Shown piece by piece: positions 31,981 through 43,395 of a stretch of DNA of 64,000 nucleotides. Positions within the stretch are counted from its first letter, which is position 1. Every line of letters starts with the position of its first letter. The position numbers and the translations under genes are program-made. Source of the stretch: a candidate division WOR-3 bacterium (lineage in GTDB: Bacteria > Hydrothermota > Hydrothermia > WGAB01). Location of the stretch: positions 6,606-70,605 of the forward strand of contig WFXO01000070.1 of assembly GCA_015490555.1 (NCBI GenBank). Direction: 5' to 3'. The notes beneath the pieces are model-generated. The model was not told the origin of the DNA. It saw nothing but the letters and a program-made list of their open reading frames with translations, and ran no database searches.

Positions 31981-33438
31981 CTACTCGTTATGAGGAATCT
32001 GGAGGGTGCTCCCGCCGATGAACTCCCGGACCAGGTGATCGCCCGGGATCAGTCGGTGGTCTTGGGTCTGTTCTCGGGTCAACCCCTCCACTGACTCGAA
32101 GAGTTTACTGACCCTCTGATACCGTATCCGGGCATCTAAGAAGGCCTCATACGGGGCCAGGTCCTCCGGCCTTGGCCAGATTCCATCGGGCACAAAATAG
32201 GGCTTGAGCACCGGTAAGTCGAAGGGCATCCCCCCATTGATCTGGTGGTCGGCCAGCCCCATCAACGGGATGATGGAGAAGAGTTCGCCGGCCCGCACAT
32301 AGTGCCAGTGGAGGAGTGTCTGGAGGGGCGGGTGGTTTCGATACATGGAATCCCGCAACATGCGCCGCAGGAGCCGAATGTCCGAGAACTGAACCAGGCG
32401 CCCCGTAGATCCGTCGCCTTCGTACATCATGTTGCTGGCCTCGATGTAGATCCGGAACATCAACGACCGGTCGATGCCCTCGGTTAAGGGGGGATAGAAG
32501 CCATGCAGACAGTCCAGGAGCAGGATCTGGTCCTTCTCCAGTTTTACGCGTTTCGTGCCCGTGTGCTCGCCCTTCTTGAAGTCGTAGATGGGCTTCTCGA
32601 TCTCCTGGCCATCCAGGAGCATTTTCAGGTGCCGGTTGATCAACTGGATATCCAGCGCCTCCGGAGTCTCAAAGTTCCGGTCATTGATCCAATCCGTGGG
32701 GTGCTCAATGAGCGGCCAGAAGTAATCGTCCAGGTTGAGCATGAGGAATCGGAGGCCCTCTCGTTCCAACCGTTGGGTGAGTTTGACCGTGGTCGTCGTC
32801 TTTCCGGAAGAGGAGGGACCGGAGATCCAGATCATCCGGATCTCATCGCCCTGATTCATGCGATCCAAGACCTTCTGAGCCGCCTCATCCAGGGACCGTT
32901 CATAGACCTCCGTCGCGGCCTCGATGAGGTCCTTGATCTTCCCCGATCGAACAATCTCATTGAGTCCTTCCACAGTATCGCACCCGTGGGCCCGGTTCCA
33001 GGCCAGGATTTCCTCGTGGAACGGGGTCGGATACCCGTTCTTGACGAACTGATCCAGGGTGATCGCACCGGCCCGGACCCAGTGTTTGCCCCAACGCCAG
33101 CATTCGTAGGCGTCAGCGACGGTCACGAAGCCGTAACTCCGAAGGACATGGATCACGGTATCCTGGATCTCTTCGATCGTGGGAGGGAAGTTCGCGATCC
33201 AGTGGCGCGGGTCACGGTTCAGAACGACGACCACAATGTCTGAGAGGAACTGCGCGATCGCTTCATCACTTCCGTAGGCGTCAAAGAGGTGGTCGTTGAC
33301 CCCCGGAAGGTAGTCCAGCCCGAACCCGCCAACCGATCGGGCCGCCCGCAAAATGGCGGAATAGATCCGCCCTTGATCGAAGGGGACCAACGAACGATCC
33401 CTCTTTTGAACCTTCCGGATCCGATTCTGAACCGCCAT
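31981..33438 (-). CDS. ATP-cone domain fused to a uridine-kinase/phosphoribulokinase-family P-loop kinase
   Basis: N-terminal 'KRDRSLVPFDQGRIYSAILRA' is ATP-cone-like. The central P-loop 'IWISGPSSSGKTTTTVKL' lies in a PRK/uridine-kinase-like context. Confidence 0.55.
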   Translation of the reverse strand: MAVQNRIRKVQKRDRSLVPFDQGRIYSAILRAARSVGGFGLDYLPGVNDHLFDAYGSDEAIAQFLSDIVVVVLNRDPRHWIANFPPTIEEIQDTVIHVLRSYGFVTVADAYECWRWGKHWVRAGAITLDQFVKNGYPTPFHEEILAWNRAHGCDTVEGLNEIVRSGKIKDLIEAATEVYERSLDEAAQKVLDRMNQGDEIRMIWISGPSSSGKTTTTVKLTQRLEREGLRFLMLNLDDYFWPLIEHPTDWINDRNFETPEALDIQLINRHLKMLLDGQEIEKPIYDFKKGEHTGTKRVKLEKDQILLLDCLHGFYPPLTEGIDRSLMFRIYIEASNMMYEGDGSTGRLVQFSDIRLLRRMLRDSMYRNHPPLQTLLHWHYVRAGELFSIIPLMGLADHQINGGMPFDLPVLKPYFVPDGIWPRPEDLAPYEAFLDARIRYQRVSKLFESVEGLTREQTQDHRLIPGDHLVREFIGGSTLQIPHNE

Positions 33439-33991: not shown

Positions 33992-36196
33992 ATGAGGTTA
34001 AGTACAATAAAATATATACAAGTTTTGTTGTATGTAGCTTTTATTTATGCCTCTGGTTTTGACTCTCTAAGCGTGCGTTTTGTTGGAAATCTGCCGTATG
34101 GATATTCGTGGGATTGTGCTGCGAATATTATGATGGGGAATGTTTATAGTGGTAGCGGTGGCGCTGTATTTATTCTCAACACCTCAACCCTCCAGAAAGT
34201 CTCGGAAATTCGGACGCGTGGTAGAGTAGTTGACATTATCTCCGACCCCTGGAATTTCAGACTGTTTATAGCTTCAGAAGTGGGTGGGATCGAGATTTGG
34301 GATGTCACCAACCCCAGTGATCCAGTAAAACTCTCACGCTATTGGACAGATGGAACACCTATGGGGCTATATTTAAACCTAAATAATCCCTATTATCTGT
34401 ATGTTGCGGACGGGGCCAACCAGTTGGTAATTTTAGATGTTTCAGATCCTACCAACCCCATACAAGTGGGGCATTTCGCTCAAAACGGGTTTTATGCCAA
34501 GGCCGTGTGGGTAGATCCCACAGAGACCTATGCATATCTTGTAGGATGGCCAACAACGGGGGCTGCTTTAAAAGTGATCGACGTTTCAAATCCTGCTCAA
34601 CCCACCTTAGTGGACACGTTTTTCTTAGGTGCTCGTTTTAATGACATTTTTGTCCTGAATCAGTACGCCTATTTGTCGGCAACTCCTCTATTGCAAGACG
34701 GAGGAATTCGCATTCTTGATCTCTCAGACCTTACCCAGCCGCAGGAGGTTGCGGTGGTTGATGGATCCTCAGATTACAGGAGTATTTGGGTGGTTCCAAA
34801 TGGGGGACAATTATATGCCTATGCTGCCAACGAGTCTGGTCTTGTGACCATGGACCTGACCGATCCACAAAACCCGGTGATCTTGAATGACAGTACCGGA
34901 ATCCCTGCGTACAAGATATACGCTATGGGCTTACTCTATGCCGCGGGCATGGATCAGGGTCTTCAAATCGTTAATCCCGTAGATCCTGCCAACCCAATGG
35001 TCGTGGGCACATATGATTTCCATGACGCTACAGGAGAACTACGCGCAGGGGTTTGTGTTAAAGGCCCATATGCATACTTAAGTTATCAAGGTCTTACAAT
35101 CGTTGACATCTCTGATTTGTCGTATCCCGTTGTAGTTTCTACTTATACGGATACTTTTGCAAACCCGCCCTATGTGTTCGATATCGATGTAGAAGATACA
35201 CTCGCCTACCTTGCGTGGTATGACGCGGGCTTCCAAATTGTGGATGTCTCCGACCCCACGAACCCCGTGAAAATAGGAGCCGTGTCTCCAAATCCACTGG
35301 AGTTTATCGTCTCTATTGATGTTCAGGGGGATTATGCATATCTGGGAACATGGAATTATGGATTAAAAGTTATCGATATCAGTGATCCATCAAATCCAGT
35401 GGAGACGGGGTCTTGGGCACCCGTCTCGCCTCCAATTATGTTCTCGGACATTAAAGCACGGGGGCAGTATGTGTATATTGTGGATCAAGCAGCACAATTC
35501 CTGAGGGTTATTGACGTTTCAGACCCATACAATCCCGTAGAGGTGAGTAATTTAGGCTTCCAAAGTAGTGTATACGCTCTCTATCTCCAAGACCAATATG
35601 CCTTTGTAAGTGGTGGGAATAACGGACTCTATGTGGTAGATATCTCAGATGCAACCAACCCATCCCTTGTTGCGCATTCAACACTTGTCGATGCATATGC
35701 CTCTGACGGAGCAGAGAATTATTTATATCTTTCCGCAGGATATGAGGGGCTTTATGTGTTAGATATTTCTAACCCTCTCAATCCAGAATTGGCCGGCTAT
35801 TACACCACCCCAGGATTTGTCAATGGCATAGCTGCCTCCGGCGAGTTTATCTTTGTTACGAATGGCTTTGGACAATCGGCTCTGCAAATTTATGAAAATC
35901 TATCCTACCTGTCTACCGAAGAGCCTGTCGGAGGCTCTCCAAATGCGCCTACCGTTAAAATCTACGGAGTGGCATCGGGATATCTAAGATTTTACCTACC
36001 GAATTCCAGTACGGTTGTACTCGATGTCTTCGATGTGATTGGGAGAAGAGTGTATTCTCAAATGCGTTTCTTCCCCCAAGGCCTCCATGAACTCCTTCTT
36101 CCACTGAAGGAGGGCGTCTACGTCGCAAGGATGGATGTAAAAGGACGGTTCGGCGTAAGTACGGTTTTAAGTAAATTTGTCTTTCTAAGAAGATAA
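33992..36196 (+). CDS. LVIVD-repeat beta-propeller protein with T9SS C-terminal sorting domain
   Basis: At least 10 LVIVD-type repeats (LVILDVSDPTNP, LKVIDVSNPAQP, LTIVDISDLSYP, FQIVDVSDPTNP, LKVIDISDPSNP, LRVIDVSDPYNP, LYVVDISDATNP, LYVLDISNPLNP ...). CTD '...LDVFDVIGRRVYSQ...GVYVARMDV'. The gene is AT-rich compared with the rest of the window. Confidence 0.7.
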   Translation: MRLSTIKYIQVLLYVAFIYASGFDSLSVRFVGNLPYGYSWDCAANIMMGNVYSGSGGAVFILNTSTLQKVSEIRTRGRVVDIISDPWNFRLFIASEVGGIEIWDVTNPSDPVKLSRYWTDGTPMGLYLNLNNPYYLYVADGANQLVILDVSDPTNPIQVGHFAQNGFYAKAVWVDPTETYAYLVGWPTTGAALKVIDVSNPAQPTLVDTFFLGARFNDIFVLNQYAYLSATPLLQDGGIRILDLSDLTQPQEVAVVDGSSDYRSIWVVPNGGQLYAYAANESGLVTMDLTDPQNPVILNDSTGIPAYKIYAMGLLYAAGMDQGLQIVNPVDPANPMVVGTYDFHDATGELRAGVCVKGPYAYLSYQGLTIVDISDLSYPVVVSTYTDTFANPPYVFDIDVEDTLAYLAWYDAGFQIVDVSDPTNPVKIGAVSPNPLEFIVSIDVQGDYAYLGTWNYGLKVIDISDPSNPVETGSWAPVSPPIMFSDIKARGQYVYIVDQAAQFLRVIDVSDPYNPVEVSNLGFQSSVYALYLQDQYAFVSGGNNGLYVVDISDATNPSLVAHSTLVDAYASDGAENYLYLSAGYEGLYVLDISNPLNPELAGYYTTPGFVNGIAASGEFIFVTNGFGQSALQIYENLSYLSTEEPVGGSPNAPTVKIYGVASGYLRFYLPNSSTVVLDVFDVIGRRVYSQMRFFPQGLHELLLPLKEGVYVARMDVKGRFGVSTVLSKFVFLRR

Positions 36197-36609
36197 GTTC
36201 ATTTTATATTACAATTTTTTCTGATCAGCTTCCTCCTCTCAAGGTTCCTTTCAAGTGACTTCGCATATTATCACTGAAAATGTTATGTCAGAACACTACC
36301 GTTATCGTGCATACTTCTGTTTATTTCTGTTTTGGTTTTCATTATATAACAAACTTATACCTTTGATTCGTTGTACCATCTACCTTCGGAAACTCGTTTC
36401 CTTTTGGCTTACAGAGATTATCGGAATGCAATTTTTCCCTGGGGATCGCCTGTCTGTCGGCAGCGACACAATATATTCCTCAAGCTCAAGGTTCCAGAAA
36501 ATTCATTCTCTGATCCCTATATCGCCCTGTCCTTCTTCTGGTTTTCTCGTAAACTATAAATATTTCGCAGAAAGGGTTTTCGAAAACAGTGAAAGGAGTG
36601 TGAAGAACA

Positions 36610-39060
36610 ATGCAATCTGTGCGATGGATCGGTCTTTTTTTATTGCTGACGACCGGCATAGGGCTTTCCCAGAATCCCGGCCGGCTGCATGGCAAGAGCA
36701 AAGGGAAAGGGGTCCTCACGGGAACTGTCGTTGATGCCGAGACGCAAGTGCCCCTGGAATATGCGAGTGTCCTCGTCTATCGCCTGACGGACAGCACCAA
36801 GGTCACCGGCGCAGTGACGGACCAAGACGGTCAATTCGTGATCCCCGGTCTCCATCCGGGTCGCTACTATGTGACCGTGGACTTCATCGGCTACAGGCAG
36901 GAGGTCCTGTCTCCCGTGCTCATGAAACCCTCTTTGCCCCGGCTGGACTTAGGAACGATCGCCCTAAAGCCCGCAGTTTTGCAAACGAGTCCCGTAGAAG
37001 TCAAGGCCGAAGCCCCACCGATCGCCTACAAGATTGACAAGAAGGTTGTCTATGTCAGCCAGCAGGCCACCGCGGCCTCCGGGACCGCCGTCGATGTCCT
37101 TGAGAATGTCCCCTCGGTGGAGGTGGACATCGAAGGGAACGTGAAACTGCGGGGAAGTGGAAACTTTACCTTGTTGATCAACGGGCGCCCGACGGTTCTG
37201 GACCCAAGCGAGGTGTTGCAACAGATCCCGGCCAGCATGATCGACCGAATCGAGATTATTACGAACCCCTCGGCAAAATATGACCCCGAAGGCATCGCGG
37301 GCATTCTCAATGTCATCCTCAAGAAGAAAGGGCCTCGGGGCATCGCTGGCACCCTGAGCCTCAACGCCGGGTTAGACCAAAAGTACGGCGGCAGCATCCT
37401 ATTAAGCCGCAGAACACGCAACGCCAATGTTTACCTCAGCCTTCATTACAACCACCGGTATTACCCGGGCTCCTATTCCGGCTCGTACCTTTACGAGGTC
37501 CCGATGCTTTTCTCTATCCAACGGGAGATGGAGGGCTCCTTCGCCCATCAGATGCTCCCCGCCGGTCTCCGTGCCGGCTTAGACTTCCGCCTCTCCCCCA
37601 AAGACTTCCTCAGTGTGGGAGGGTCTTACGGACGTTGGCAAATGGAACGGAACAGCACGGTCCATTATGTGGAAGTCGGGATCCCGCCTGACCCCCCGTT
37701 CCCCGAAACCACGCGATACATCACCGAGAACACCTGGAAACGCTCAGGGCCGTACACTTCTGGTTTCCTCTCCTATGAGCATGACTTTGCAGGGCAGGAA
37801 CACAAAGCAACACTGGACTTCTCGTACAGCAAGCGATCTGGCAACGAGGAATCGCAAAGTTTCCAATTCGATGACACCACAGGCGGGATTCTTTCCGGCA
37901 ACCTGGCCACCGAGGAAGGGCCGAGCGAACGCGGCGATCTGAAACTCCATTATCAGCGTCCAATCCTGACTTCCTCCAAACTTGAACTGGGGTATCAGGG
38001 GAGTCTTCGCCGATCCCAGACCCTCAAATCATATGCCATCTGGGACACAGCCTCGGGAGAATTTGTCTTCCAGCCAGAGTTCCAGCATGATGTCCAAACA
38101 AGCCACCTGCATCACGCCATTTATGGTCTGCTCTCCAACGAAACCGGGCGGCTGGGATGGCAGGTAGGGCTCCGGATTGAAAGGATCCACCGCACAATCC
38201 AACTCAAGGAGGTTGGAGAAACGTTCAAATTGGACCAAATGGACTACTTCCCATCGTTCCATATCTCTTACAAACTCGCGGAGCGAACCCAGGTCATGGC
38301 GGGCTATACCCGGCGGATCCGGCGTCCGAGGTCCTGGTGGCTCGAGCCTTATTTGACCTGGATCGATGCGAACACCGTCTATCAGGGCAATCCGGACCTC
38401 CAGCCCTCGTTTTCGGATGCCGTGGACCTCGGATTCCAAACTCCGATGGGGCCCCTGGACGTGACGATCGATGCCTATGCCCGCTTTACTCACCAACGAA
38501 TCGAACGGATCCAACGCATCTATGAAGGGGATGTCGTCCTCTTTACTTATGACAACGTGGGCTCTTCGGAATCCTACGGTTCGGAGATCAACATAGACTG
38601 GAAGCCCCTGCCGTTTTGGTCTTTAAACGGCGTCCTGGATCTCTCGGAATTTCGCCTCTACGGCACCTCGTATCGGGGAAGTTTCCAGTGGAATCTCCGG
38701 CTTCGCAGTGATTTCCGGCTTGGCCGTGCGACCCAGATCCAGGTCACCGCTCGGTATACCAGTCCCTCGGTGACCTCTCAGGGCACGCGGGAAGGCTATT
38801 ACACATTGGATCTGGCGTGGCGACAGAACTTCAGCCGATCCTTGAGCCTGATCCTTCAGGTCCGGGATGTCTTCCGAACGGGCAAATGGTCCTTTACCTC
38901 TTCCTTTGAGAATCGGACCATCGAGCGAACCTATCAGCGGAAGGCGCCGGTGATCACGATCAGCCTGCGATACCTGTTCAACAACTACCGACCGGAAAAA
39001 CGACCCCAGATCCCCAGCAGAGAGGAAGAGCAACCCCCAGACATCTTCGAGGGGTTTTAA
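36610..39060 (+). CDS. Outer-membrane beta-barrel receptor (TonB-dependent-receptor-like) with N-terminal carboxypeptidase-regulatory-like domain
   Basis: Signal peptide; 'GTVVDAETQVPLEYASVLVY...TDQDGQFVIPGLHPGRYYVTVDFIGY' is a CarbopepD_reg-like fold. A plug-like region follows, then a long beta-barrel ending in 'DIFEGF'. Confidence 0.6.
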   Translation: MQSVRWIGLFLLLTTGIGLSQNPGRLHGKSKGKGVLTGTVVDAETQVPLEYASVLVYRLTDSTKVTGAVTDQDGQFVIPGLHPGRYYVTVDFIGYRQEVLSPVLMKPSLPRLDLGTIALKPAVLQTSPVEVKAEAPPIAYKIDKKVVYVSQQATAASGTAVDVLENVPSVEVDIEGNVKLRGSGNFTLLINGRPTVLDPSEVLQQIPASMIDRIEIITNPSAKYDPEGIAGILNVILKKKGPRGIAGTLSLNAGLDQKYGGSILLSRRTRNANVYLSLHYNHRYYPGSYSGSYLYEVPMLFSIQREMEGSFAHQMLPAGLRAGLDFRLSPKDFLSVGGSYGRWQMERNSTVHYVEVGIPPDPPFPETTRYITENTWKRSGPYTSGFLSYEHDFAGQEHKATLDFSYSKRSGNEESQSFQFDDTTGGILSGNLATEEGPSERGDLKLHYQRPILTSSKLELGYQGSLRRSQTLKSYAIWDTASGEFVFQPEFQHDVQTSHLHHAIYGLLSNETGRLGWQVGLRIERIHRTIQLKEVGETFKLDQMDYFPSFHISYKLAERTQVMAGYTRRIRRPRSWWLEPYLTWIDANTVYQGNPDLQPSFSDAVDLGFQTPMGPLDVTIDAYARFTHQRIERIQRIYEGDVVLFTYDNVGSSESYGSEINIDWKPLPFWSLNGVLDLSEFRLYGTSYRGSFQWNLRLRSDFRLGRATQIQVTARYTSPSVTSQGTREGYYTLDLAWRQNFSRSLSLILQVRDVFRTGKWSFTSSFENRTIERTYQRKAPVITISLRYLFNNYRPEKRPQIPSREEEQPPDIFEGF

Positions 39061-39074
39061 CGGCAGCAGGGACG

Positions 39075-41282
39075 TCAGTCCTTGTCGTTCGGGGAGTCCT
39101 TCTCTTCTTGCTTGAGACGGATCCAGGTCTGTTGACCCTGCTTGGCCTTGAAGGGTTTGGGCGCTTCGTATTCCCGCGGATTCTCTAACTCCCAGGCATA
39201 GAGAGATTGCCCCTTGGCGTACTTCTTCAGGAAGCGTGGGTCGGCGAGGTGCTTCGCATAGTGTTCGTCTCCCAGGAGTTCCTCAACGGTAAATGGGCCG
39301 TGAACATCTCGGATTTCCACCGTGCCGAGGACCTCATTCCCCCGGATGACCGCAACCCGGCCACGAACCCGGGTCGGATGCTTGCGGATTTCCCACCGCT
39401 TTTTCCCCTGCACGATGTACGTGGCATACGGGTCCTGGACCCGGAACCCCCGATCCGGCAACCGGTCGGCCTGGAAGAAAGTCCCATAGCCCACGATATA
39501 GACCGCGTCCGGATCCAGGGCTTTCAAGATCTCCTGTCGATGGAGGACCAGGACCAGGGCGATCCCTTGCTCACGGGCAAGGTGGGAGAGCCGCCGGGCC
39601 ACACGCAAGGCGGTGGGAGTGTCCAACGGCGCGGCAAATTCGTCAATCAGCAGGACATTCGGCCGTTTGGCCAGGAGATAGGCGAGTTGGGCCCTCGCCT
39701 TTTGGCCGGTGGAGAGTTCCCGATAAGGTGCCCGATAGAGGACCGCATCGGAGATGCCCACGATACTCAAGAGTTCGACGACCAGGGCCTCATCCCCTGT
39801 GAGCCGATACAGGACCTCGGCCAGCGGCTCGTCGCCGAAGTCCGGCTCGATCTCCCCGGGCAATAGGGCCTCGACCCGGGCGTTTTCTGGGACTTCGATC
39901 GTCCCCTCATCCGGCCGATAAAGGGGATTGTCCCATCCCTGGATGGCACCGTAAATTAACCGGAGCAGAGTTGTCTTCCCACTCCCAGATGCCCCCAGCA
40001 CCACCTGGACTGAGCCTGGAGAGATCTCCATCTGGACCCGACGAAGCACCGTCTTCTGGATCACCCGGTGGCGGACCCCAAAGGCCTCCAGAAGCCGGCC
40101 TACCGGTTCTGACAACTTCGACAGATCCAGATGACTGGTATAGGCCTTGGTGACGTTGATTAGGCGGATGGGAGATTGGAGCGGCTCGCCCGCCCGATAG
40201 CGAGGCCGGTAGAGTTTGCCTTTGTGTTCCCGGGCCACCGCGTCGGTCTCCAAGAAGGCCTGGATCGCCTGGGCGGCGGCCTCGCTGAGCGCATAGTAGA
40301 GCACCGGCCGGCCACTGGCCGTGTCCCAGAGGTAGCGGAACCCCACTTTTTCCATGAAGGGGTTGTATCGGGTCATCATGGCGACCGTCTCGACTGCCTC
40401 TTTGGGAGCACGCATGTCCGGGACCCAGCGTTCCTGGAGCCATTGGAACATGGCTTTGAGGGCCAGTTGCCCCAAGCCGTCTGCGCGGTAATCCGGATGG
40501 ATCACAACCCGTGCCAGTCGGGCAACCGGTGAGCGGGCTTCTCTAAGGGCCGCTCCCTGGACTTCCCACCAGTCCTCTTCTTTCTCTCCAGGCTTCGGAT
40601 GAAAGGGATGGGCAAACCACTCCGGCGGAAAGACCTTTTGGCGGATATCCCGCTCTATATTGCCATCGGGAAGACGCCGGTGCATCAAGGGCAACGGCGG
40701 ATCGATCCGTACATAGCCAATGTATCTCGGCTCGTAGGGCTGGCGGCTCCGAAGCTCCAAGACCAGAAAGCGAGAAGCACGGGTAGCACTTTTGAGGTCA
40801 TGGAATCGCATGGGCTTGTGGCATTTCGGGCAGACAGGGCGGGCGTTGGATTCCCGATAGAGGTGGCAGGTCTCACAGTACCAGCGTGCCAAGAGTTCCT
40901 CGTCTGACGCGTAATGGTACTGCTCAAGGTCCACGATCGCTGCATAGTCGTGCTCAAATTGGGCTTCCCTGGCCAGGACCGTGTAGGTATAGAGGATCTC
41001 CTCGGAGACGGGACTCCGACGGTGTGATTCAAACGTGGCCTCAAAGGGCGGCCAGATAGGGATGGCCCCCTCCAGACGATAGTTGGTGAACGTGATGGCC
41101 TCAGGATCTTCCAGGGTGAGGGTCAGGGGCTCCCCGGGACGAAGCCACTGGGCCACGGTGCCGGTCATGGGGAGCCGATAGCGGGCACCATGCTCGTCCT
41201 CGACCCACAAGAAGCCAGCATATCGATACGTGCCTCGCCGATACACAGCACGCCAGACTCGAACCTCCATTGCCTCTTTCAT
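39075..41282 (-). CDS. Multidomain protein: CxxC...CxxC Zn-ribbon, GNAT-like acetyltransferase motif, single ABC-type ATPase domain, C-terminal ASCH domain
   Basis: Zn-ribbon 'CETCHLYRESNARPVCPKCHKP' (~aa 136-154). GNAT motif-A-like 'VVIHPDYRADGLGQLALKAMFQWL' (~aa 259-282). ABC Walker A 'VLGASGSGKTTLL', signature 'LSTGQ', Walker B 'VLLIDEF' (aa ~428-548). ASCH signature GxKxxExR as 'GKKRWEIR' (~aa 626-633). Confidence 0.6.
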   Translation of the reverse strand: MKEAMEVRVWRAVYRRGTYRYAGFLWVEDEHGARYRLPMTGTVAQWLRPGEPLTLTLEDPEAITFTNYRLEGAIPIWPPFEATFESHRRSPVSEEILYTYTVLAREAQFEHDYAAIVDLEQYHYASDEELLARWYCETCHLYRESNARPVCPKCHKPMRFHDLKSATRASRFLVLELRSRQPYEPRYIGYVRIDPPLPLMHRRLPDGNIERDIRQKVFPPEWFAHPFHPKPGEKEEDWWEVQGAALREARSPVARLARVVIHPDYRADGLGQLALKAMFQWLQERWVPDMRAPKEAVETVAMMTRYNPFMEKVGFRYLWDTASGRPVLYYALSEAAAQAIQAFLETDAVAREHKGKLYRPRYRAGEPLQSPIRLINVTKAYTSHLDLSKLSEPVGRLLEAFGVRHRVIQKTVLRRVQMEISPGSVQVVLGASGSGKTTLLRLIYGAIQGWDNPLYRPDEGTIEVPENARVEALLPGEIEPDFGDEPLAEVLYRLTGDEALVVELLSIVGISDAVLYRAPYRELSTGQKARAQLAYLLAKRPNVLLIDEFAAPLDTPTALRVARRLSHLAREQGIALVLVLHRQEILKALDPDAVYIVGYGTFFQADRLPDRGFRVQDPYATYIVQGKKRWEIRKHPTRVRGRVAVIRGNEVLGTVEIRDVHGPFTVEELLGDEHYAKHLADPRFLKKYAKGQSLYAWELENPREYEAPKPFKAKQGQQTWIRLKQEEKDSPNDKD

Positions 41283-41375: not shown

Positions 41376-41942
41376 TTATAGAGGGGATTGGAGCCAATCA
41401 ATCGTTCCCCCTCTTCTTTCCAGGATTCGCTCAAGCCGGCGTCGGTTGAGTCTCTGAACAGCCACGGGATAGGCGTTAAAGAGGAGGTTGAACAAAAACA
41501 GCCAGCCCGCAAACGCCCAATTGCGGGTGATCGCAGCGAAAAGAACGATCAACATTTCCAGAATCCATAGGAGCATGTGGGCGGTTTCGGCCTCCACCAT
41601 GGTTTGGTAGAGTCGGACCAGCCGTTGCCGTCGGTCAGGGGTAGCCAGGGCGTTCCGGTATGGGCCGTTCAGGATCTTGCGGAGGATCCTGCGAGCAAGC
41701 GTCACCCCGAAGAAACGGTACCCAGGTGGATGCTGTTTTTCGAAACGACGGTGACGGTAATAGGAACGGGGGAAACGGTAGGGAGATGTCCGCATCAAGA
41801 GATGTGCCCAAAGCATCAGAAAGCCCTGCAGCCATAGGGCACGAGACCACGGGGCGGTGTTCGCTGTCCGCATGAACAACGTGACGATTGCGGCCATCCC
41901 GAGGGTCAGGAAGATTGCGCCCAGTTTCCTCAAGGACACCAC
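41376..41942 (-). CDS. Small polytopic membrane protein (possibly CrtO-like acyltransferase family), hypothetical
   Basis: 188 aa with 3-4 hydrophobic helices. I weakly recall 'NAYPVAVQRLNRRRLE' as resembling glycosyl-diaponeurosporenoate acyltransferase-like proteins. Low confidence. Confidence 0.35.
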   Translation of the reverse strand: MVSLRKLGAIFLTLGMAAIVTLFMRTANTAPWSRALWLQGFLMLWAHLLMRTSPYRFPRSYYRHRRFEKQHPPGYRFFGVTLARRILRKILNGPYRNALATPDRRQRLVRLYQTMVEAETAHMLLWILEMLIVLFAAITRNWAFAGWLFLFNLLFNAYPVAVQRLNRRRLERILERRGGTIDWLQSPL

Positions 41943-42011: not shown

Positions 42012-42407
42012 TCAAAGCGATCCGGCTGGCCCAACGTCTCCTCTCTTGAGTTGTTGGTACGCGAGTTTGGCGAGGCCGCCCGCGATGTGATCTTTTAAGG
42101 TGGTGCCTTCCACGGCCAGTTCGCCCTCTACCTTTTGTCTGACCTTCTCGGGGTCGGCCCGCTTGATCATCCGAACCGCATTCCGGCTGATCCCAAGAAA
42201 CTGTGCAATTTCATCTTCCGTCTTGTTCATTTCCTCGCTTAAGACCACGGTATAGGCGGCCGTCATGAGACTGGGGAGCCAGGTCAGGTTTCGAAACTCG
42301 ATGAGCTTCCGGGGTCCTCCAATCATTTCCAGGACTTTCAAGAAGACCTGCATCGCCTTTTGATCCACATCCACGGCTTGGATTTCCTCAGGTCGAAGCA
42401 CCGGCAT
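42012..42407 (-). CDS. Small putative HTH regulator, hypothetical
   Basis: 131 aa with an HTH-like segment 'EDEIAQFLGISRNAVRMIKR'. It sits 4 nt downstream of the KaiC-like ATPase gene. Confidence 0.4.
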   Translation of the reverse strand: MPVLRPEEIQAVDVDQKAMQVFLKVLEMIGGPRKLIEFRNLTWLPSLMTAAYTVVLSEEMNKTEDEIAQFLGISRNAVRMIKRADPEKVRQKVEGELAVEGTTLKDHIAGGLAKLAYQQLKRGDVGPAGSL

Positions 42408-42411
42408 GGTC

Positions 42412-43395
42412 TCACCTCCCGGTTTTGGCTTTCGTCAAAGAAGACAGGGGCTCTTTCACGACGACCAGGCCAGTTTCTGTGATTTCCATGTGATGCGTGG
42501 AGGGATCGTGCCCACACATCCGACACCCATCGATGCGAATCAGGTGGACCCGTTCGCCGATTGGAAGTCCATAGAGTTTTGCGTCGTAAGCCGATTGGAT
42601 ATTCTTCTTGGCCAGGACGATGGAGCAGTCCACGATGTGGGACACCGCATAGCCCCCGGCGGCTTCTGCGGACATCTCCTCATGGCCACTCCGTTTCTGG
42701 GACACAAAGATCGCGGTTTGATGCCATTTTTTCATGAAGTTATAGAGCCGACGGACGATGCTACGCGCCATCATCTCCTTGGCCTCATAGAGGCCCGTGA
42801 CGGAGTCGATCACCGTGTTTTTGACATGGTATGTCGAGATGGCATACGCCAGGGTGTTGAAGAGCGTGGAGAGGTCGTCCCGCAGGACTGCATGGCTGGC
42901 GGCATCGATGATCACAATTCGATCCTCGATGTCCTCATAGGCCACCCCCATAGCGCGGGCCCGGACCTTCAAAGCGGCCGCAAGGAAGGAGGCCGGGGTC
43001 TCGACCGTGACAAAAATCGTGTTGTGGCCCTGTCGTGCCTGCTCCACCGCAAATTGCTCGGCCATGAGCGACTTGCCGGTGTCCGAGACCCCGGTAAGGT
43101 GGATCACGGCATACCGCGGATAGCCGCCGAGAGGCTGCTTCTTCGGCCTGCCCCGTTTTGTCAGGGTAGTCACAAAGAAAAGGTCATCCAGGCCGGGCAC
43201 ACCGGTGGCGACACCCTCCAACTCCGGCGCCCGTTGACCCACCTGTTGAAGCGTTTCGACGGCCTCCACGAACGGGCCGTGTTCCGTAGGCTCGGCTCCC
43301 TGCCCCCGGGGTGTTCGAGCGGCGGTCTCTCTCGGATCGTGCTTCATCAACCTTCCCTCCTGTCTGTGGCAACCCCTGGATTCGGGCTCACACAC
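42412..43395 (-). CDS. KaiC/RadA-like RecA-superfamily ATPase (single domain)
   Basis: Walker A 'HLTGVSDTGKSLMAEQF', Walker B-like 'IVIIDAAS', and the overall KaiC-like pattern 'GVPGLDDLF...GGYPRYAVI'. Confidence 0.65.
   Translation of the reverse strand: MCEPESRGCHRQEGRLMKHDPRETAARTPRGQGAEPTEHGPFVEAVETLQQVGQRAPELEGVATGVPGLDDLFFVTTLTKRGRPKKQPLGGYPRYAVIHLTGVSDTGKSLMAEQFAVEQARQGHNTIFVTVETPASFLAAALKVRARAMGVAYEDIEDRIVIIDAASHAVLRDDLSTLFNTLAYAISTYHVKNTVIDSVTGLYEAKEMMARSIVRRLYNFMKKWHQTAIFVSQKRSGHEEMSAEAAGGYAVSHIVDCSIVLAKKNIQSAYDAKLYGLPIGERVHLIRIDGCRMCGHDPSTHHMEITETGLVVVKEPLSSLTKAKTGR

Follow-up and report, generated by a model that had tools for sequence, protein, structure and literature searches.

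A gene on the minus strand of the window (the whole stretch of 64,000 nucleotides analyzed here) encodes a protein that combines four folds with complete and invariant catalytic motifs, has relatives whose named hosts are all thermophiles, and shows a conserved linkage to ASCH domains. The gene product probably adds and removes cytosine acetyl marks in RNA or DNA. Tentatively, we read it more specifically as a writer of cytosine-N4 acetyl marks that is driven by ATP, is coupled to an eraser and would work like TmcA and NAT10 without being a member of that family.

Domain architecture of the protein

The gene matches exactly an ATG-started open reading frame of 735 amino acids in the ORF list of the window (39075..41282, minus strand), and public data contain an identical protein (P0001). 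The full-length AlphaFold model has a pLDDT of 89.4 and a pTM of 0.74. Structure prediction and profile searches validated the Zn-ribbon, GNAT, ABC and ASCH domains called in the preliminary description of this DNA, and every motif that it listed is present in the translation: C136-E-T-C139 and C151-P-K-C154, separated by 11 residues; IHPDYRADGLGQLAL at residues 261–275; GASGSGKTT (430–438), LSTGQ (523–527) and LLIDEF (544–549); and the octapeptide GKKRWEIR (residues 626–633, nucleotides 39384–39407). The Pfam scores for ABC_tran and ASCH and the structure match to TTHA0113, given below, indicate that these motifs are not chance occurrences. The domains are arranged as follows:

39075..41282, minus strand: whole gene, 735 aa; order N-terminal beta domain, GNAT with inserted Zn-ribbon, linker, ABC ATPase, ASCH
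40998..41282, minus strand: N-terminal beta-rich domain, aa 1–95, seven strands (secondary structure from models, pLDDT ~95)
40890..40997, minus strand: predicted beta1 and alpha1 of the GNAT fold, aa 96–131; invariant Y100, R105, E106 and D112; motif EQxHYA
40794..40889, minus strand: Zn-ribbon, aa 132–163, C136-x2-C139-x11-C151-x2-C154, inserted in the GNAT fold (sequence reading)
40218..40793, minus strand: GNAT core, aa 164–355, including an insert of ~55 residues (195–250) and acetyl-CoA motif A
40470..40520, minus strand: GNAT motif A, aa 255–271, R-L-A-R-V-V-I-H-P-D-Y-R-A-D-G-L-G (52-sequence alignment)
40098..40217, minus strand: GNAT-ABC linker, aa 356–395, of lower confidence (pLDDT 65–79 in the N-terminal model)
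39471..40097, minus strand: single ABC-type nucleotide-binding domain, aa 396–604
39105..39470, minus strand: ASCH domain, aa 605–726, putative N4-acetylcytidine amidohydrolase of the TthASCH type (PDB and Pfam matches)

The seven-stranded domain ahead of the GNAT fold had been overlooked in the preliminary description. G41, Q45, W46, W77 and P78 are invariant in the 52-sequence family alignment, and the domain had no match in Pfam or in a profile search against PDB sequences. Profile-profile comparison with the ASCH domain revealed no relation between the two (probability 0.9 %).

Structure prediction assigns a GNAT fold to residues 96–355. The order of secondary-structure elements suggests that residues 96–131 supply beta1 and alpha1 of this fold, ahead of the Zn-ribbon. 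Of the ribbon cysteines, C136 and C151 show no variation, whereas position 154 is a cysteine in 49 of the 52 sequences and position 139 a cysteine in 32 and an aspartate in 14; the match to Pfam Zn_ribbon_6 is weak (E 0.084). In motif A, all 52 sequences retain R255, R258, V260, H262, D264, Y265, R266, G269 and G271 and contain the R/Q-x-x-G-x-G/A pattern that binds the pyrophosphate of acetyl-CoA (R266-A-D-G269-L-G271 in the window protein). The Pfam Acetyltransf_1 match is marginal and barely passed its cut-off (E 2.7e-4, 21.6 bits vs 20.7). Among 826 structural matches that Foldseek returned for the GNAT module, the best nine were NAT10, Kre33 and TmcA, a weak preference given E values of 1e-5 to 1e-4 and a query-normalized TM-score of ~0.25. 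NAT10 appeared at E 0.7 amid generic GNATs in the profile search against PDB sequences, and Pfam GNAT_acetyltr_2 (PF13718) scored below its cut-off (E 0.25, 11.2 bits vs 24.6). We rejected a specific sequence kinship to the NAT10/TmcA acetyltransferases, as the shared 'HPDY..G.G' string is generic motif A, found also in RimI and others.

The ATPase module (Pfam ABC_tran, E 2.3e-15) is a complete ABC domain with Walker A, Walker B, signature, D-loop and H-loop. The invariant positions in the 52-sequence alignment include G430, S432, G433, G435 and K436 of Walker A, the LSTGQ signature, D547-E548 and H581. At what appears to be the Q-loop position, the glutamine is replaced by an invariant E477-x-E479. 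Pfam searches with E values up to 1 detected no DUF1726 or helicase-type P-loop domain ahead of the GNAT fold.

The C-terminal part has a clear match to Pfam ASCH (PF04266; E 5.2e-8, 34 bits vs a cut-off of 21.2). Its closest solved relative is TthASCH from T. thermophilus (TTHA0113, PDB 2DP9/1WK2), with E 6e-26 over 116 residues. TthASCH hydrolyzes N4-acetylcytidine (ac4C) experimentally, both as the nucleoside and in tRNA (bioRxiv 10.64898/2026.02.27.708502, preprint). Mutagenesis showed that Y14, K23, E26, R28 and Y81 are needed and that K23 and E26 are essential (bioRxiv 10.64898/2026.02.27.708502). The five mutated residues correspond to Y619, K628, E631, R633 and Y688 in the window protein, three of them within the octapeptide GxKxxExR (G626-K-K628-R-W-E631-I-R633). 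Furthermore, all 27 fused family members carry K628, E631, R633 and Y688, and Y619 is retained in 26/27 and replaced by Trp in the remaining one. Base binding alone would be an equally possible role for the conserved ASCH pocket. Both the GNAT core (pI 9.5) and the ASCH domain (pI 9.7) are basic, which fits the expectation for nucleic-acid binders.

A thermophile family with a conserved ASCH partner

The preliminary description recognized no known architecture in this protein. Its GNAT-ABC core nevertheless belongs to an annotated database family, 'ABC-type ATPase with predicted acetyltransferase domain' (JGI), within which ASCH fusions are common. Our homology search returned 597 matches, the best of them 50–77 % identical over 77–100 % of the query and several carrying the JGI family name, and a reciprocal search from a Thermococcus member retrieved the same family. 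Members fall into hundreds of database clusters. In the 52-sequence alignment they share the N-terminal beta domain, the Zn-ribbon, a GNAT module with RVV[VI]HPDYRx[DE]GLG and then one ABC domain; even a branch at 32 % identity retains all the family-defining invariant columns. We found no paper on the family in the searched literature. Its label we take to be COG2401.

The ASCH fusion is the common bacterial form of the family and occurs at the C-terminus in ~40 % of the sampled lineages, the window protein included. Archaeal and some bacterial members (~620–650 aa) lack it. Archaeal and bacterial proteins share ~50 % identity, a level of conservation that makes the gene resemble a housekeeping gene. 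All the named hosts recovered in the homologue searches are (hyper)thermophilic bacteria or archaea. ac4C increases with temperature in hyperthermophilic archaea, and the all-thermophile host range fits cytidine acetylation as a heat adaptation. Pyrococcus and Thermococcus also possess a NAT10 homologue. T. kodakarensis, whose NAT10 homologue reportedly accounts for all detectable RNA ac4C, is absent from the named hosts of the GNAT-ABC family.

We compared the neighborhood of the gene with 94 homologous loci besides the window and counted ASCH linkage over 43 de-replicated lineages (80 % identity clusters). ASCH is fused in 17 of the 43 lineages, with two more fused or split (17–19). In a further 9–10 lineages it is a separate gene, which is convergent and abuts the 3' end of the GNAT-ABC gene in seven and lies nearby in two to three; one lineage has the ASCH gene immediately upstream of GNAT-ABC. 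The remaining category, 14/43 lineages without a nearby ASCH gene, includes Pyrococcus and Thermococcus. A convergent downstream gene of P. furiosus, considered as a hidden ASCH, codes for a 152-aa membrane protein. In the divergent member (32 % identity), an ASCH gene lies two genes upstream within a virus- or mobile-element-like locus that also contains PolB, a Cas4-like nuclease and ParB_N. In the analysis of neighbor clusters, no partner other than ASCH was conserved over diverse lineages. An HDAC neighbor was rejected as a conserved partner because it is restricted to one close lineage of Rhodothermus-type genomes.

The window itself holds four co-directional minus-strand genes with gaps of 4, 69 and 93 bp, including a KaiC/near-KaiC pair (TIGR03878 with TIGR03879). 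The four-gene operon proposed earlier stands as a co-directional arrangement in the window, but one that is conserved nowhere else. Close homologues of the KaiC, near-KaiC and CrtO-like neighbors occur in 0/94 loci, where we found just four weak KaiC-superfamily matches (E ~1e-5), and for this reason the suggested functional link to KaiC was discarded. A role in a defense system, also raised earlier, does not hold for the cellular family: no defense or restriction genes recur near GNAT-ABC in the 94 loci, and the PADLOC matches reflect generic ABC or ASCH similarity (mad3, mad8 and AriA confined to the ABC region; PDC-M11B to the ASCH region, E 0.0015). The link to N4-acetylcytidine, by contrast, emerged stronger than first proposed, given ac4C hydrolysis by TthASCH and the retention of its catalytic residues. 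The status of ASCH as sole conserved partner and the first rank of NAT10, Kre33 and TmcA in Foldseek also favor the earlier interpretation.

Proposed reaction and alternative explanations

We propose that the protein is a soluble thermophile enzyme in which an ABC-type ATPase would drive an acetyl-CoA-dependent GNAT acyltransferase. The N-terminal beta domain and the Zn-ribbon are likely to hold the substrate. The ABC ATPase is expected to dimerize head-to-tail upon ATP binding and thereby provide a clamp or a power stroke. Using ATP, the GNAT module would acetylate a nucleic-acid cytosine at its exocyclic N4, and the ASCH domain, physically coupled to this module, could remove or proofread the acetyl group. 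The cellular substrate is most probably a structured RNA, for example tRNA or rRNA. Against such a writer/eraser reading, a protein that both writes and erases the mark would seem to run a futile cycle. The 14/43 lineages without an ASCH gene nearby and the NAT10 homologue of Pyrococcus and Thermococcus also count against it.

Phage relatives of the family bear directly on the choice of substrate. The PHROG profile of phrog_11143 matches the window protein (E 5e-20), with homologous ABC (28 % identity over 245 aa, E 1e-14) and GNAT (36 % over 66 aa, E 1e-9) modules and the shared motifs RxARxxxHP..G.G and YNPF.EK.GF. The phage proteins differ in their reversed order (ABC then GNAT), their shorter length (~357–370 aa) and their lack of the N-terminal domain and Zn-ribbon. 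They also differ in belonging to mesophilic phages and in their linkage to ParB_N and terminase genes, whereas the window protein has no ParB neighbor. The phrog_11143 gene directly follows ParB_N in 24/31 viral loci and lies ahead of the terminase large subunit in 13. In L128, ParB_N, ABC and GNAT form a single polypeptide, and in cultured phages the ABC-GNAT pair adjoins ParB or DNA-methylase genes. Some of the loci also have ASCH or ASCH-like neighbors. An iterated ASCH HMM identified canonical ASCH in only two viral or element loci, and 8 further small proteins with GxKxxE[YF]R match ASCH only below the Pfam cut-off; the ASCH link of the phage and element loci is, on these matches, suggestive rather than established. 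The N-terminal domain and GNAT module of the thermophile family had no match in cultured phage genomes.

The ParB and terminase neighbors of these relatives argue for DNA over RNA, and the domain-swapped phage proteins keep DNA open as a substrate. The enzyme could then acylate a DNA base, yielding either N4-acetyl-deoxycytidine or a Mom-like adduct, with an ABC dimer that clamps or scans the duplex and an ASCH domain that reads or reverses the mark; phages would protect packaged DNA in this way and thermophiles would stabilize or mark their chromosome. The virus-like locus of the divergent member, with its polymerase, nuclease, ASCH and ParB_N genes, is consistent with such a role. We nonetheless consider it unlikely for the cellular family, which lacks ParB and recurring restriction or defense genes and is conserved like a housekeeping gene. 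Furthermore, the searched literature reports N4-acetyl-deoxycytidine only from plants and other eukaryotes, and the demonstrated substrates of the homologous TthASCH are only the ribonucleoside and tRNA. The more specific idea that GNAT-ABC/ASCH and its ParB-linked phage relatives form one system for the N4-acetylation of DNA cytosines, eraser included, used by thermophiles to stabilize or mark DNA and by phages to protect packaged genomes, is quite unlikely. If true, it would provide the first N4-acetyl-deoxycytidine writer identified in any organism.

It is also unlikely that the GNAT module acetylates a protein or small molecule (for example, ribosomal or chromatin proteins, or polyamines), with the ABC domain regulating the reaction or delivering the substrate and the ASCH domain merely tethering the enzyme to RNA or DNA or cleaving another amide. 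The HDAC neighbor that could have pointed in this direction is limited to one close lineage. Moreover, the sole broadly conserved partner is ASCH, and its role as a mere tether is hard to explain because the catalytic dyad is strictly retained.

Salvage or detoxification of free nucleosides or nucleotides in ac4C-rich organisms would assign ASCH the deacetylation of ac4C released by RNA turnover and GNAT-ABC the processing or sensing of the product. TthASCH completely hydrolyzes free ac4C within 4 h (bioRxiv 10.64898/2026.02.27.708502), salvage roles have been proposed for EOLA1 and YqfB, and P. furiosus has xanthine/uracil permease and uracil phosphoribosyltransferase genes just downstream. 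Yet such pyrimidine-salvage neighbors occur in a single genome, ASCH alone being conserved across diverse lineages, and salvage leaves the invariant acetyl-CoA motif and the complete ATPase unexplained. We regard it as improbable. An ordinary ATP-binding subunit of an ABC transporter, as suggested by the labels 'ABC transporter ATP-binding protein' or 'MetN' in some database records and by the transporter nucleotide-binding domains that come nearest to the ATPase part in sequence and structure, is highly improbable for a protein whose ~400 N-terminal residues are predicted to be a GNAT enzyme, whose presumed Q-loop has E477-x-E479 instead of the permease-coupling Gln, and beside which no permease or binding-protein gene recurs in 94 loci.

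For the writer/eraser reading, the genetic and often physical tie between a candidate writer and an eraser-type domain makes regulated acetyl turnover directly testable. The family also connects to a widespread pair of phage genes, ParB and then ABC-GNAT, with a possible role in DNA modification. Confirmation of the activity would allow a function to be assigned to the whole GNAT-ABC gene family and to one PHROG (phrog_11143).

Comparison with known systems

ABC domains drive soluble enzymes in PhnK/PhnL (C-P lyase), MCR activation component A2, ABCF and ABCE1, none of which is fused to an acyltransferase or ASCH domain. Phage Mu Mom (PDB 8BV8), a DNA adenine modifier with a GNAT fold, has neither an ATPase nor an ASCH domain, has no detectable sequence relationship to the window protein and differs in both chemistry and target base. 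Amidohydrolases of the TthASCH/YqfB type are stand-alone proteins of ~120 aa, whereas the window ASCH is the C-terminal domain of a predicted enzyme of 735 aa; it shares with TthASCH the GxKxxExR octapeptide and all five mutated residues. To our knowledge, ac4C erasers were first proposed in 2026, and TmcA and NAT10, both helicase-GNAT enzymes, are the only characterized ac4C writers that depend on acetyl-CoA and ATP.

The proposed functional parallel is with TmcA, NAT10 and Kre33. Their ATPase is of the helicase type, whereas that of the window protein is of the ABC type and C-terminal to the GNAT fold; the window protein also lacks DUF1726 and tRNA_bind_2 and has no specific sequence relationship to them. 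Like the window protein, they carry a P-loop ATPase and a GNAT domain in a single chain, and their GNAT domains are its top Foldseek matches. Their chemistry also concerns ac4C, which ASCH domains of the type linked to the GNAT-ABC core take as substrate. In this family an ATPase and a GNAT domain are paired for a second time, by an independent route, and the window protein would follow the logic of TmcA and NAT10 with unrelated parts and its own eraser aboard.

Domain anatomy of the GNAT-ABC-ASCH protein

The reading frame and all motifs quoted in the preliminary description were located in the translation of a single gene:

39075..41282, minus strand: 735-aa open reading frame with an ATG start (ORF listing)

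The translation carries the cysteines of a Zn-ribbon (C136-x2-C139-x11-C151-x2-C154), the GNAT motif stretch IHPDYRADGLGQLAL (aa 261-275), the ABC motifs GASGSGKTT (430-438), LSTGQ (523-527) and LLIDEF (544-549), and the ASCH octapeptide GKKRWEIR (626-633). Pfam profiles matched the ABC ATPase (ABC_tran, E 2.3e-15) and the ASCH domain (E 5.2e-8, exceeding the curated cut-off), and the Acetyltransf_1 profile barely passed (21.6 versus a cut-off of 20.7 bits). NCBIfam returned sub-threshold matches alone, all to transporter ATP-binding subunits. Two AlphaFold2 models built from an alignment of 52 family sequences were confident, one for aa 1-395 (pLDDT 91.5, pTM 0.87) and one for the full length (pLDDT 89.4, pTM 0.74). 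The models place a seven-strand beta domain (aa 1-95) ahead of the GNAT, a feature absent from the preliminary description. Profile searches of this domain gave no match in Pfam or in PDB sequences, and profile-profile comparison indicated that it is unrelated to ASCH.

Several functional residues are invariant in the family alignment. They include C136 and C151 of the Zn-ribbon, R255, R258, H262, D264, Y265, R266, G269 and G271 of GNAT motif A, and the Walker A, LSTGQ, Walker B aspartate, catalytic glutamate, D-loop and H-loop of the ATPase. The glutamine of the Q-loop, which couples transporter ABC domains to permeases, is missing, and the invariant residues E477 and E479 occupy the inferred Q-loop position instead. 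The GNAT core and the ASCH domain are both basic (pI 9.5 and 9.7, respectively).

Family distribution and the ASCH linkage

The preliminary description recognised no known architecture in the protein. However, a word-indexed search recovered 597 relatives, already labelled in databases as 'GNAT family N-acetyltransferase', 'ATP-binding cassette domain-containing protein' or, at JGI, 'ABC-type ATPase with predicted acetyltransferase domain', a label that we take to be COG2401. The 735-aa protein belongs to this GNAT-ABC family, to the GNAT superfamily and to the ASCH family. Forms with ASCH (~730-770 aa) occur in Chloroflexota, Rhodothermus, Ardenticatena and Caldiserica. Those without it (~620-650 aa) are archaeal (Thermococcus, Korarchaeota and Asgard/Njordarchaeia) or bacterial (Thermomicrobium, Thermoflexus and Bipolaricaulota). 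Searching with a Thermococcus member added Pyrococcus furiosus, P. horikoshii, P. yayanosii, Palaeococcus, Pyrodictium, Pyrolobus, Archaeoglobus veneficus, Desulfurococcaceae and ANME-1. The named hosts are all generally known as thermophiles or hyperthermophiles. Identity between archaeal and bacterial members is ~50 %. Furthermore, when 1.84 billion representatives were scanned exhaustively by HMMER with aa 1-395 as the query, 11 proteins and no more reached E < 1e-30, so the family is compact and strongly conserved. The same scan recovered a divergent branch of unchanged architecture (31-32 % identity) and a tail of 300-890 aa proteins matching the motif-A region alone. Six of the seven tail proteins scanned are GNAT and ABC fusions, one of them also matching Pfam DruA. 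We found no publication on the family in the literature searched.

All-against-all clustering of neighbouring ORFs identified an ASCH gene as the sole neighbour conserved across diverse lineages, in the arrangements listed below.

Location of ASCH relative to the GNAT-ABC gene (43 lineages, de-replicated at 80 % identity)
C-terminal fusion: 17
Fusion or split gene (frameshift possible): 2
Separate convergent gene that adjoins or overlaps the 3' end (-157 to +111 bp): 7
Separate, nearby: 3 (2 convergent, <=1.5 kb downstream; 1 directly upstream, co-directional)
None in the flank: 14
Contig too short for an ASCH neighbour: 1

The convergent class, whose overlapping layout is odd for a partner gene, includes Thermomicrobium and Bipolaricaulaceae. 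Where ASCH is separate, its protein is clearly orthologous to the fused domain and retains the same motifs. A fusion together with a conserved neighbourhood, found in three different layouts, argues strongly for a functional link between GNAT-ABC and ASCH. Selection in thermophiles has kept together a GNAT whose acetyl-CoA motif is intact, a complete ATPase of the ABC type and an ASCH domain of the N4-acetylcytidine-amidohydrolase type. The archaeal Thermococcales, which also carry a NAT10 homologue, have the GNAT-ABC core without an adjacent ASCH.

The ASCH assignment of the preliminary description is also borne out by a match to T. thermophilus TTHA0113 (TthASCH; PDB 2DP9/1WK2) at E 6e-26 over 116 residues, with 2DP9 the best match to the domain. 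A February 2026 preprint assayed 19 ASCH proteins, among which TthASCH completely hydrolysed the N4-acetylcytidine (ac4C) nucleoside in 4 h, deacetylated tRNA in vitro and, in E. coli, significantly lowered tRNA ac4C to one of the lowest levels of the panel (bioRxiv 10.64898/2026.02.27.708502). Mutagenesis in the same study found Y14, K23, E26, R28 and Y81 to be important and K23 and E26 to be essential on tRNA. These residues align with Y619, K628, E631, R633 and Y688 of the 735-aa protein; the last four do not vary among the 27 fused members examined, and position 619 is tyrosine in 26 and tryptophan in one. Because TthASCH is active and the mutated residues are conserved, the domain very probably acts as an amidohydrolase on N4-acyl-cytosine or, at minimum, has kept the pocket for it intact.

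Gene neighbourhoods and viral relatives

The gene is the last of four co-directional genes on the minus strand, separated by gaps of 4, 69 and 93 bp, with a promoter-like site upstream of the KaiC gene:

42012-43395, minus strand: KaiC-domain gene (single-domain; TIGR03878 'thermo_KaiC_2', E 6.5e-127) and 'near-KaiC' regulatory-domain gene (TIGR03879, E 9.7e-32), both upstream and co-directional, 4-bp gap
41376-41942, minus strand: 188-aa membrane protein (Pfam CrtO, glycosyl-4,4'-diaponeurosporenoate acyltransferase, E 7.7e-18), between the KaiC pair and the GNAT-ABC-ASCH gene

The near-KaiC protein (131 aa) is a probable regulatory domain with a sigma-70 region-4-like HTH. The preliminary description's arrangement with a KaiC-like ATPase stands as co-directional in the window but is conserved in none of 94 other loci with the family, drawn from genomes and metagenomes. 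These loci, some of them from relatives that share 66-78 % identity and offer as much as ~8 kb of flank upstream, have no close homologues of the KaiC, near-KaiC or CrtO-like neighbours. The four-gene operon is limited to the window's organism, and a partnership of the GNAT-ABC-ASCH protein with KaiC was rejected. The KaiC/near-KaiC pair is itself known, uncharacterised and unrelated to the GNAT-ABC-ASCH finding.

In three Chloroflexota lineages with the fused form (L011, 10210-11136; also L019, L020 and L021), a class-I SAM methyltransferase whose C-terminal CxxC...CxxC tail resembles a Zn-ribbon lies directly downstream on the same strand, overlapping the gene end, and may be a second, lineage-specific modification enzyme. 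Rhodothermus-type loci (L005, 3045-4076; L012, 6866-7897) have divergent histone-deacetylase-family and beta-eliminating lyase genes upstream and a convergent HD-domain gene overlapping the 3' end. In Njordarchaeales (L015, 9976-10729; the same region in L071), a HEPN/nucleotidyltransferase (MNT) toxin-antitoxin pair separates GNAT-ABC from the convergent ASCH. In the window, an 816-aa TonB-dependent receptor with CarboxypepD_reg, preceded by a 734-aa LVIVD-repeat beta-propeller protein (33992-39060, plus strand), is convergent with the GNAT-ABC-ASCH gene. These two proteins hint at a host resembling Bacteroidota/Rhodothermota (FCB group) more than Chloroflexota. A 485-aa protein (31981-33438, minus strand) fuses an ATP-cone (E 5.7e-13) to a domain of the phosphoribulokinase/uridine-kinase family (E 6.9e-13), which would make it similar to a nucleoside kinase under allosteric control.

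The family also has relatives in viruses. Its divergent member P0148 (32 % identity over 522 residues, E 7e-72) ends a single-strand cluster (L098, 3-7063) of family-B DNA polymerase, Cas4-like nuclease, ASCH (Pfam E 7.7e-6) and ParB_N genes; the locus resembles that of an archaeal virus or mobile element. When IMG/VR was scanned with the alignment of the family, 31 loci were recovered that encode a ~370-aa protein of reversed order (ABC then GNAT), which belongs to phrog_11143, 'unknown function'. A ParB_N gene lies immediately upstream in 24 of the 31 and a terminase large subunit downstream in 13. One locus (L128) encodes a single ParB_N-ABC-GNAT polypeptide, whose ABC (28 % identity over 245 aa, E 1e-14) and GNAT (36 % over 66 aa, E 1e-9) modules match the window protein; the two GNATs share RLAR..IHP...G.G and YNPF.EK.GF. 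One viral locus has a canonical ASCH gene, convergent and overlapping the 3' end (Pfam E 9e-8), and eight more encode ~100-aa proteins with a GxKxxE[YF]R motif; the four of these that were scanned matched ASCH only under the Pfam cut-off (E 7e-4 to 0.03). The ParB_N and ABC-GNAT pair (L099-L130 in IMG/VR) is widespread; it adjoins the terminase genes, and in some cases a small ASCH-like protein is encoded there too. The pair is also present in cultured mesophilic phages, for example Pasteurella Pmp13, Streptococcus 315.4, Gordonia Ligma and Mariokart, and an Oenococcus phage; their annotations read hypothetical or 'ABC transporter', and a DNA methylase is a frequent neighbour. Porphyromonas, Aeromonas and other phages have it as well. 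The N-terminal part of the thermophile family had no match among cultured phages. Neither the conserved ASCH linkage nor the phrog_11143 kinship was found in the literature searched.

Proposed activity and comparison with known systems

We tentatively propose a cytosine-N4 acetyl writer plus eraser that acts on nucleic acid, RNA being the favoured substrate in cells. ATP binding would dimerise the ABC domains head-to-tail, as is common to all ABC proteins, and shift the GNAT and N-terminal modules joined to them. The GNAT core and ASCH, both basic, could hold the nucleic acid together with the Zn-ribbon and the N-terminal beta domain while the GNAT acetylates cytosine N4 and ASCH reverses or proofreads the mark. 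A writer fused to its eraser looks like a futile cycle.

DNA is an unlikely but credible substrate, given the ParB and terminase genes around the viral relatives and the precedent of Mom. Some ASCH proteins bind DNA, and N4-acetyl-dC in DNA has been raised as a possible substrate (bioRxiv 10.64898/2026.02.27.708502). That the acceptor is a protein or small molecule seems similarly doubtful, and a role in nucleoside-level metabolism is quite improbable. A transporter subunit, very improbable for an ATPase with no conserved permease partner in its neighbourhoods, was rejected in every functional sense tested. The preliminary description offered a defence role as an alternative; the protein does not fall within the PADLOC defence systems.

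To our knowledge, no acetyltransferase with an ABC ATPase has been characterised, and we found none driven by one in the literature searched. Foldseek matched 826 structures to the GNAT module, and the nine best were those of NAT10, Kre33 and TmcA; this signal is weak, and sequence profiles did not support it. Membership in the TmcA/NAT10 family was rejected because its defining domains were looked for and were absent. The writer-eraser proposal follows the logic of TmcA/NAT10, in which an ATPase presents cytidine to the GNAT. Unlike these enzymes, the window protein has an ABC engine rather than a helicase and carries an eraser. It would be a GNAT that modifies nucleic acid in an ATP-dependent manner, assembled from other parts than the known ones.
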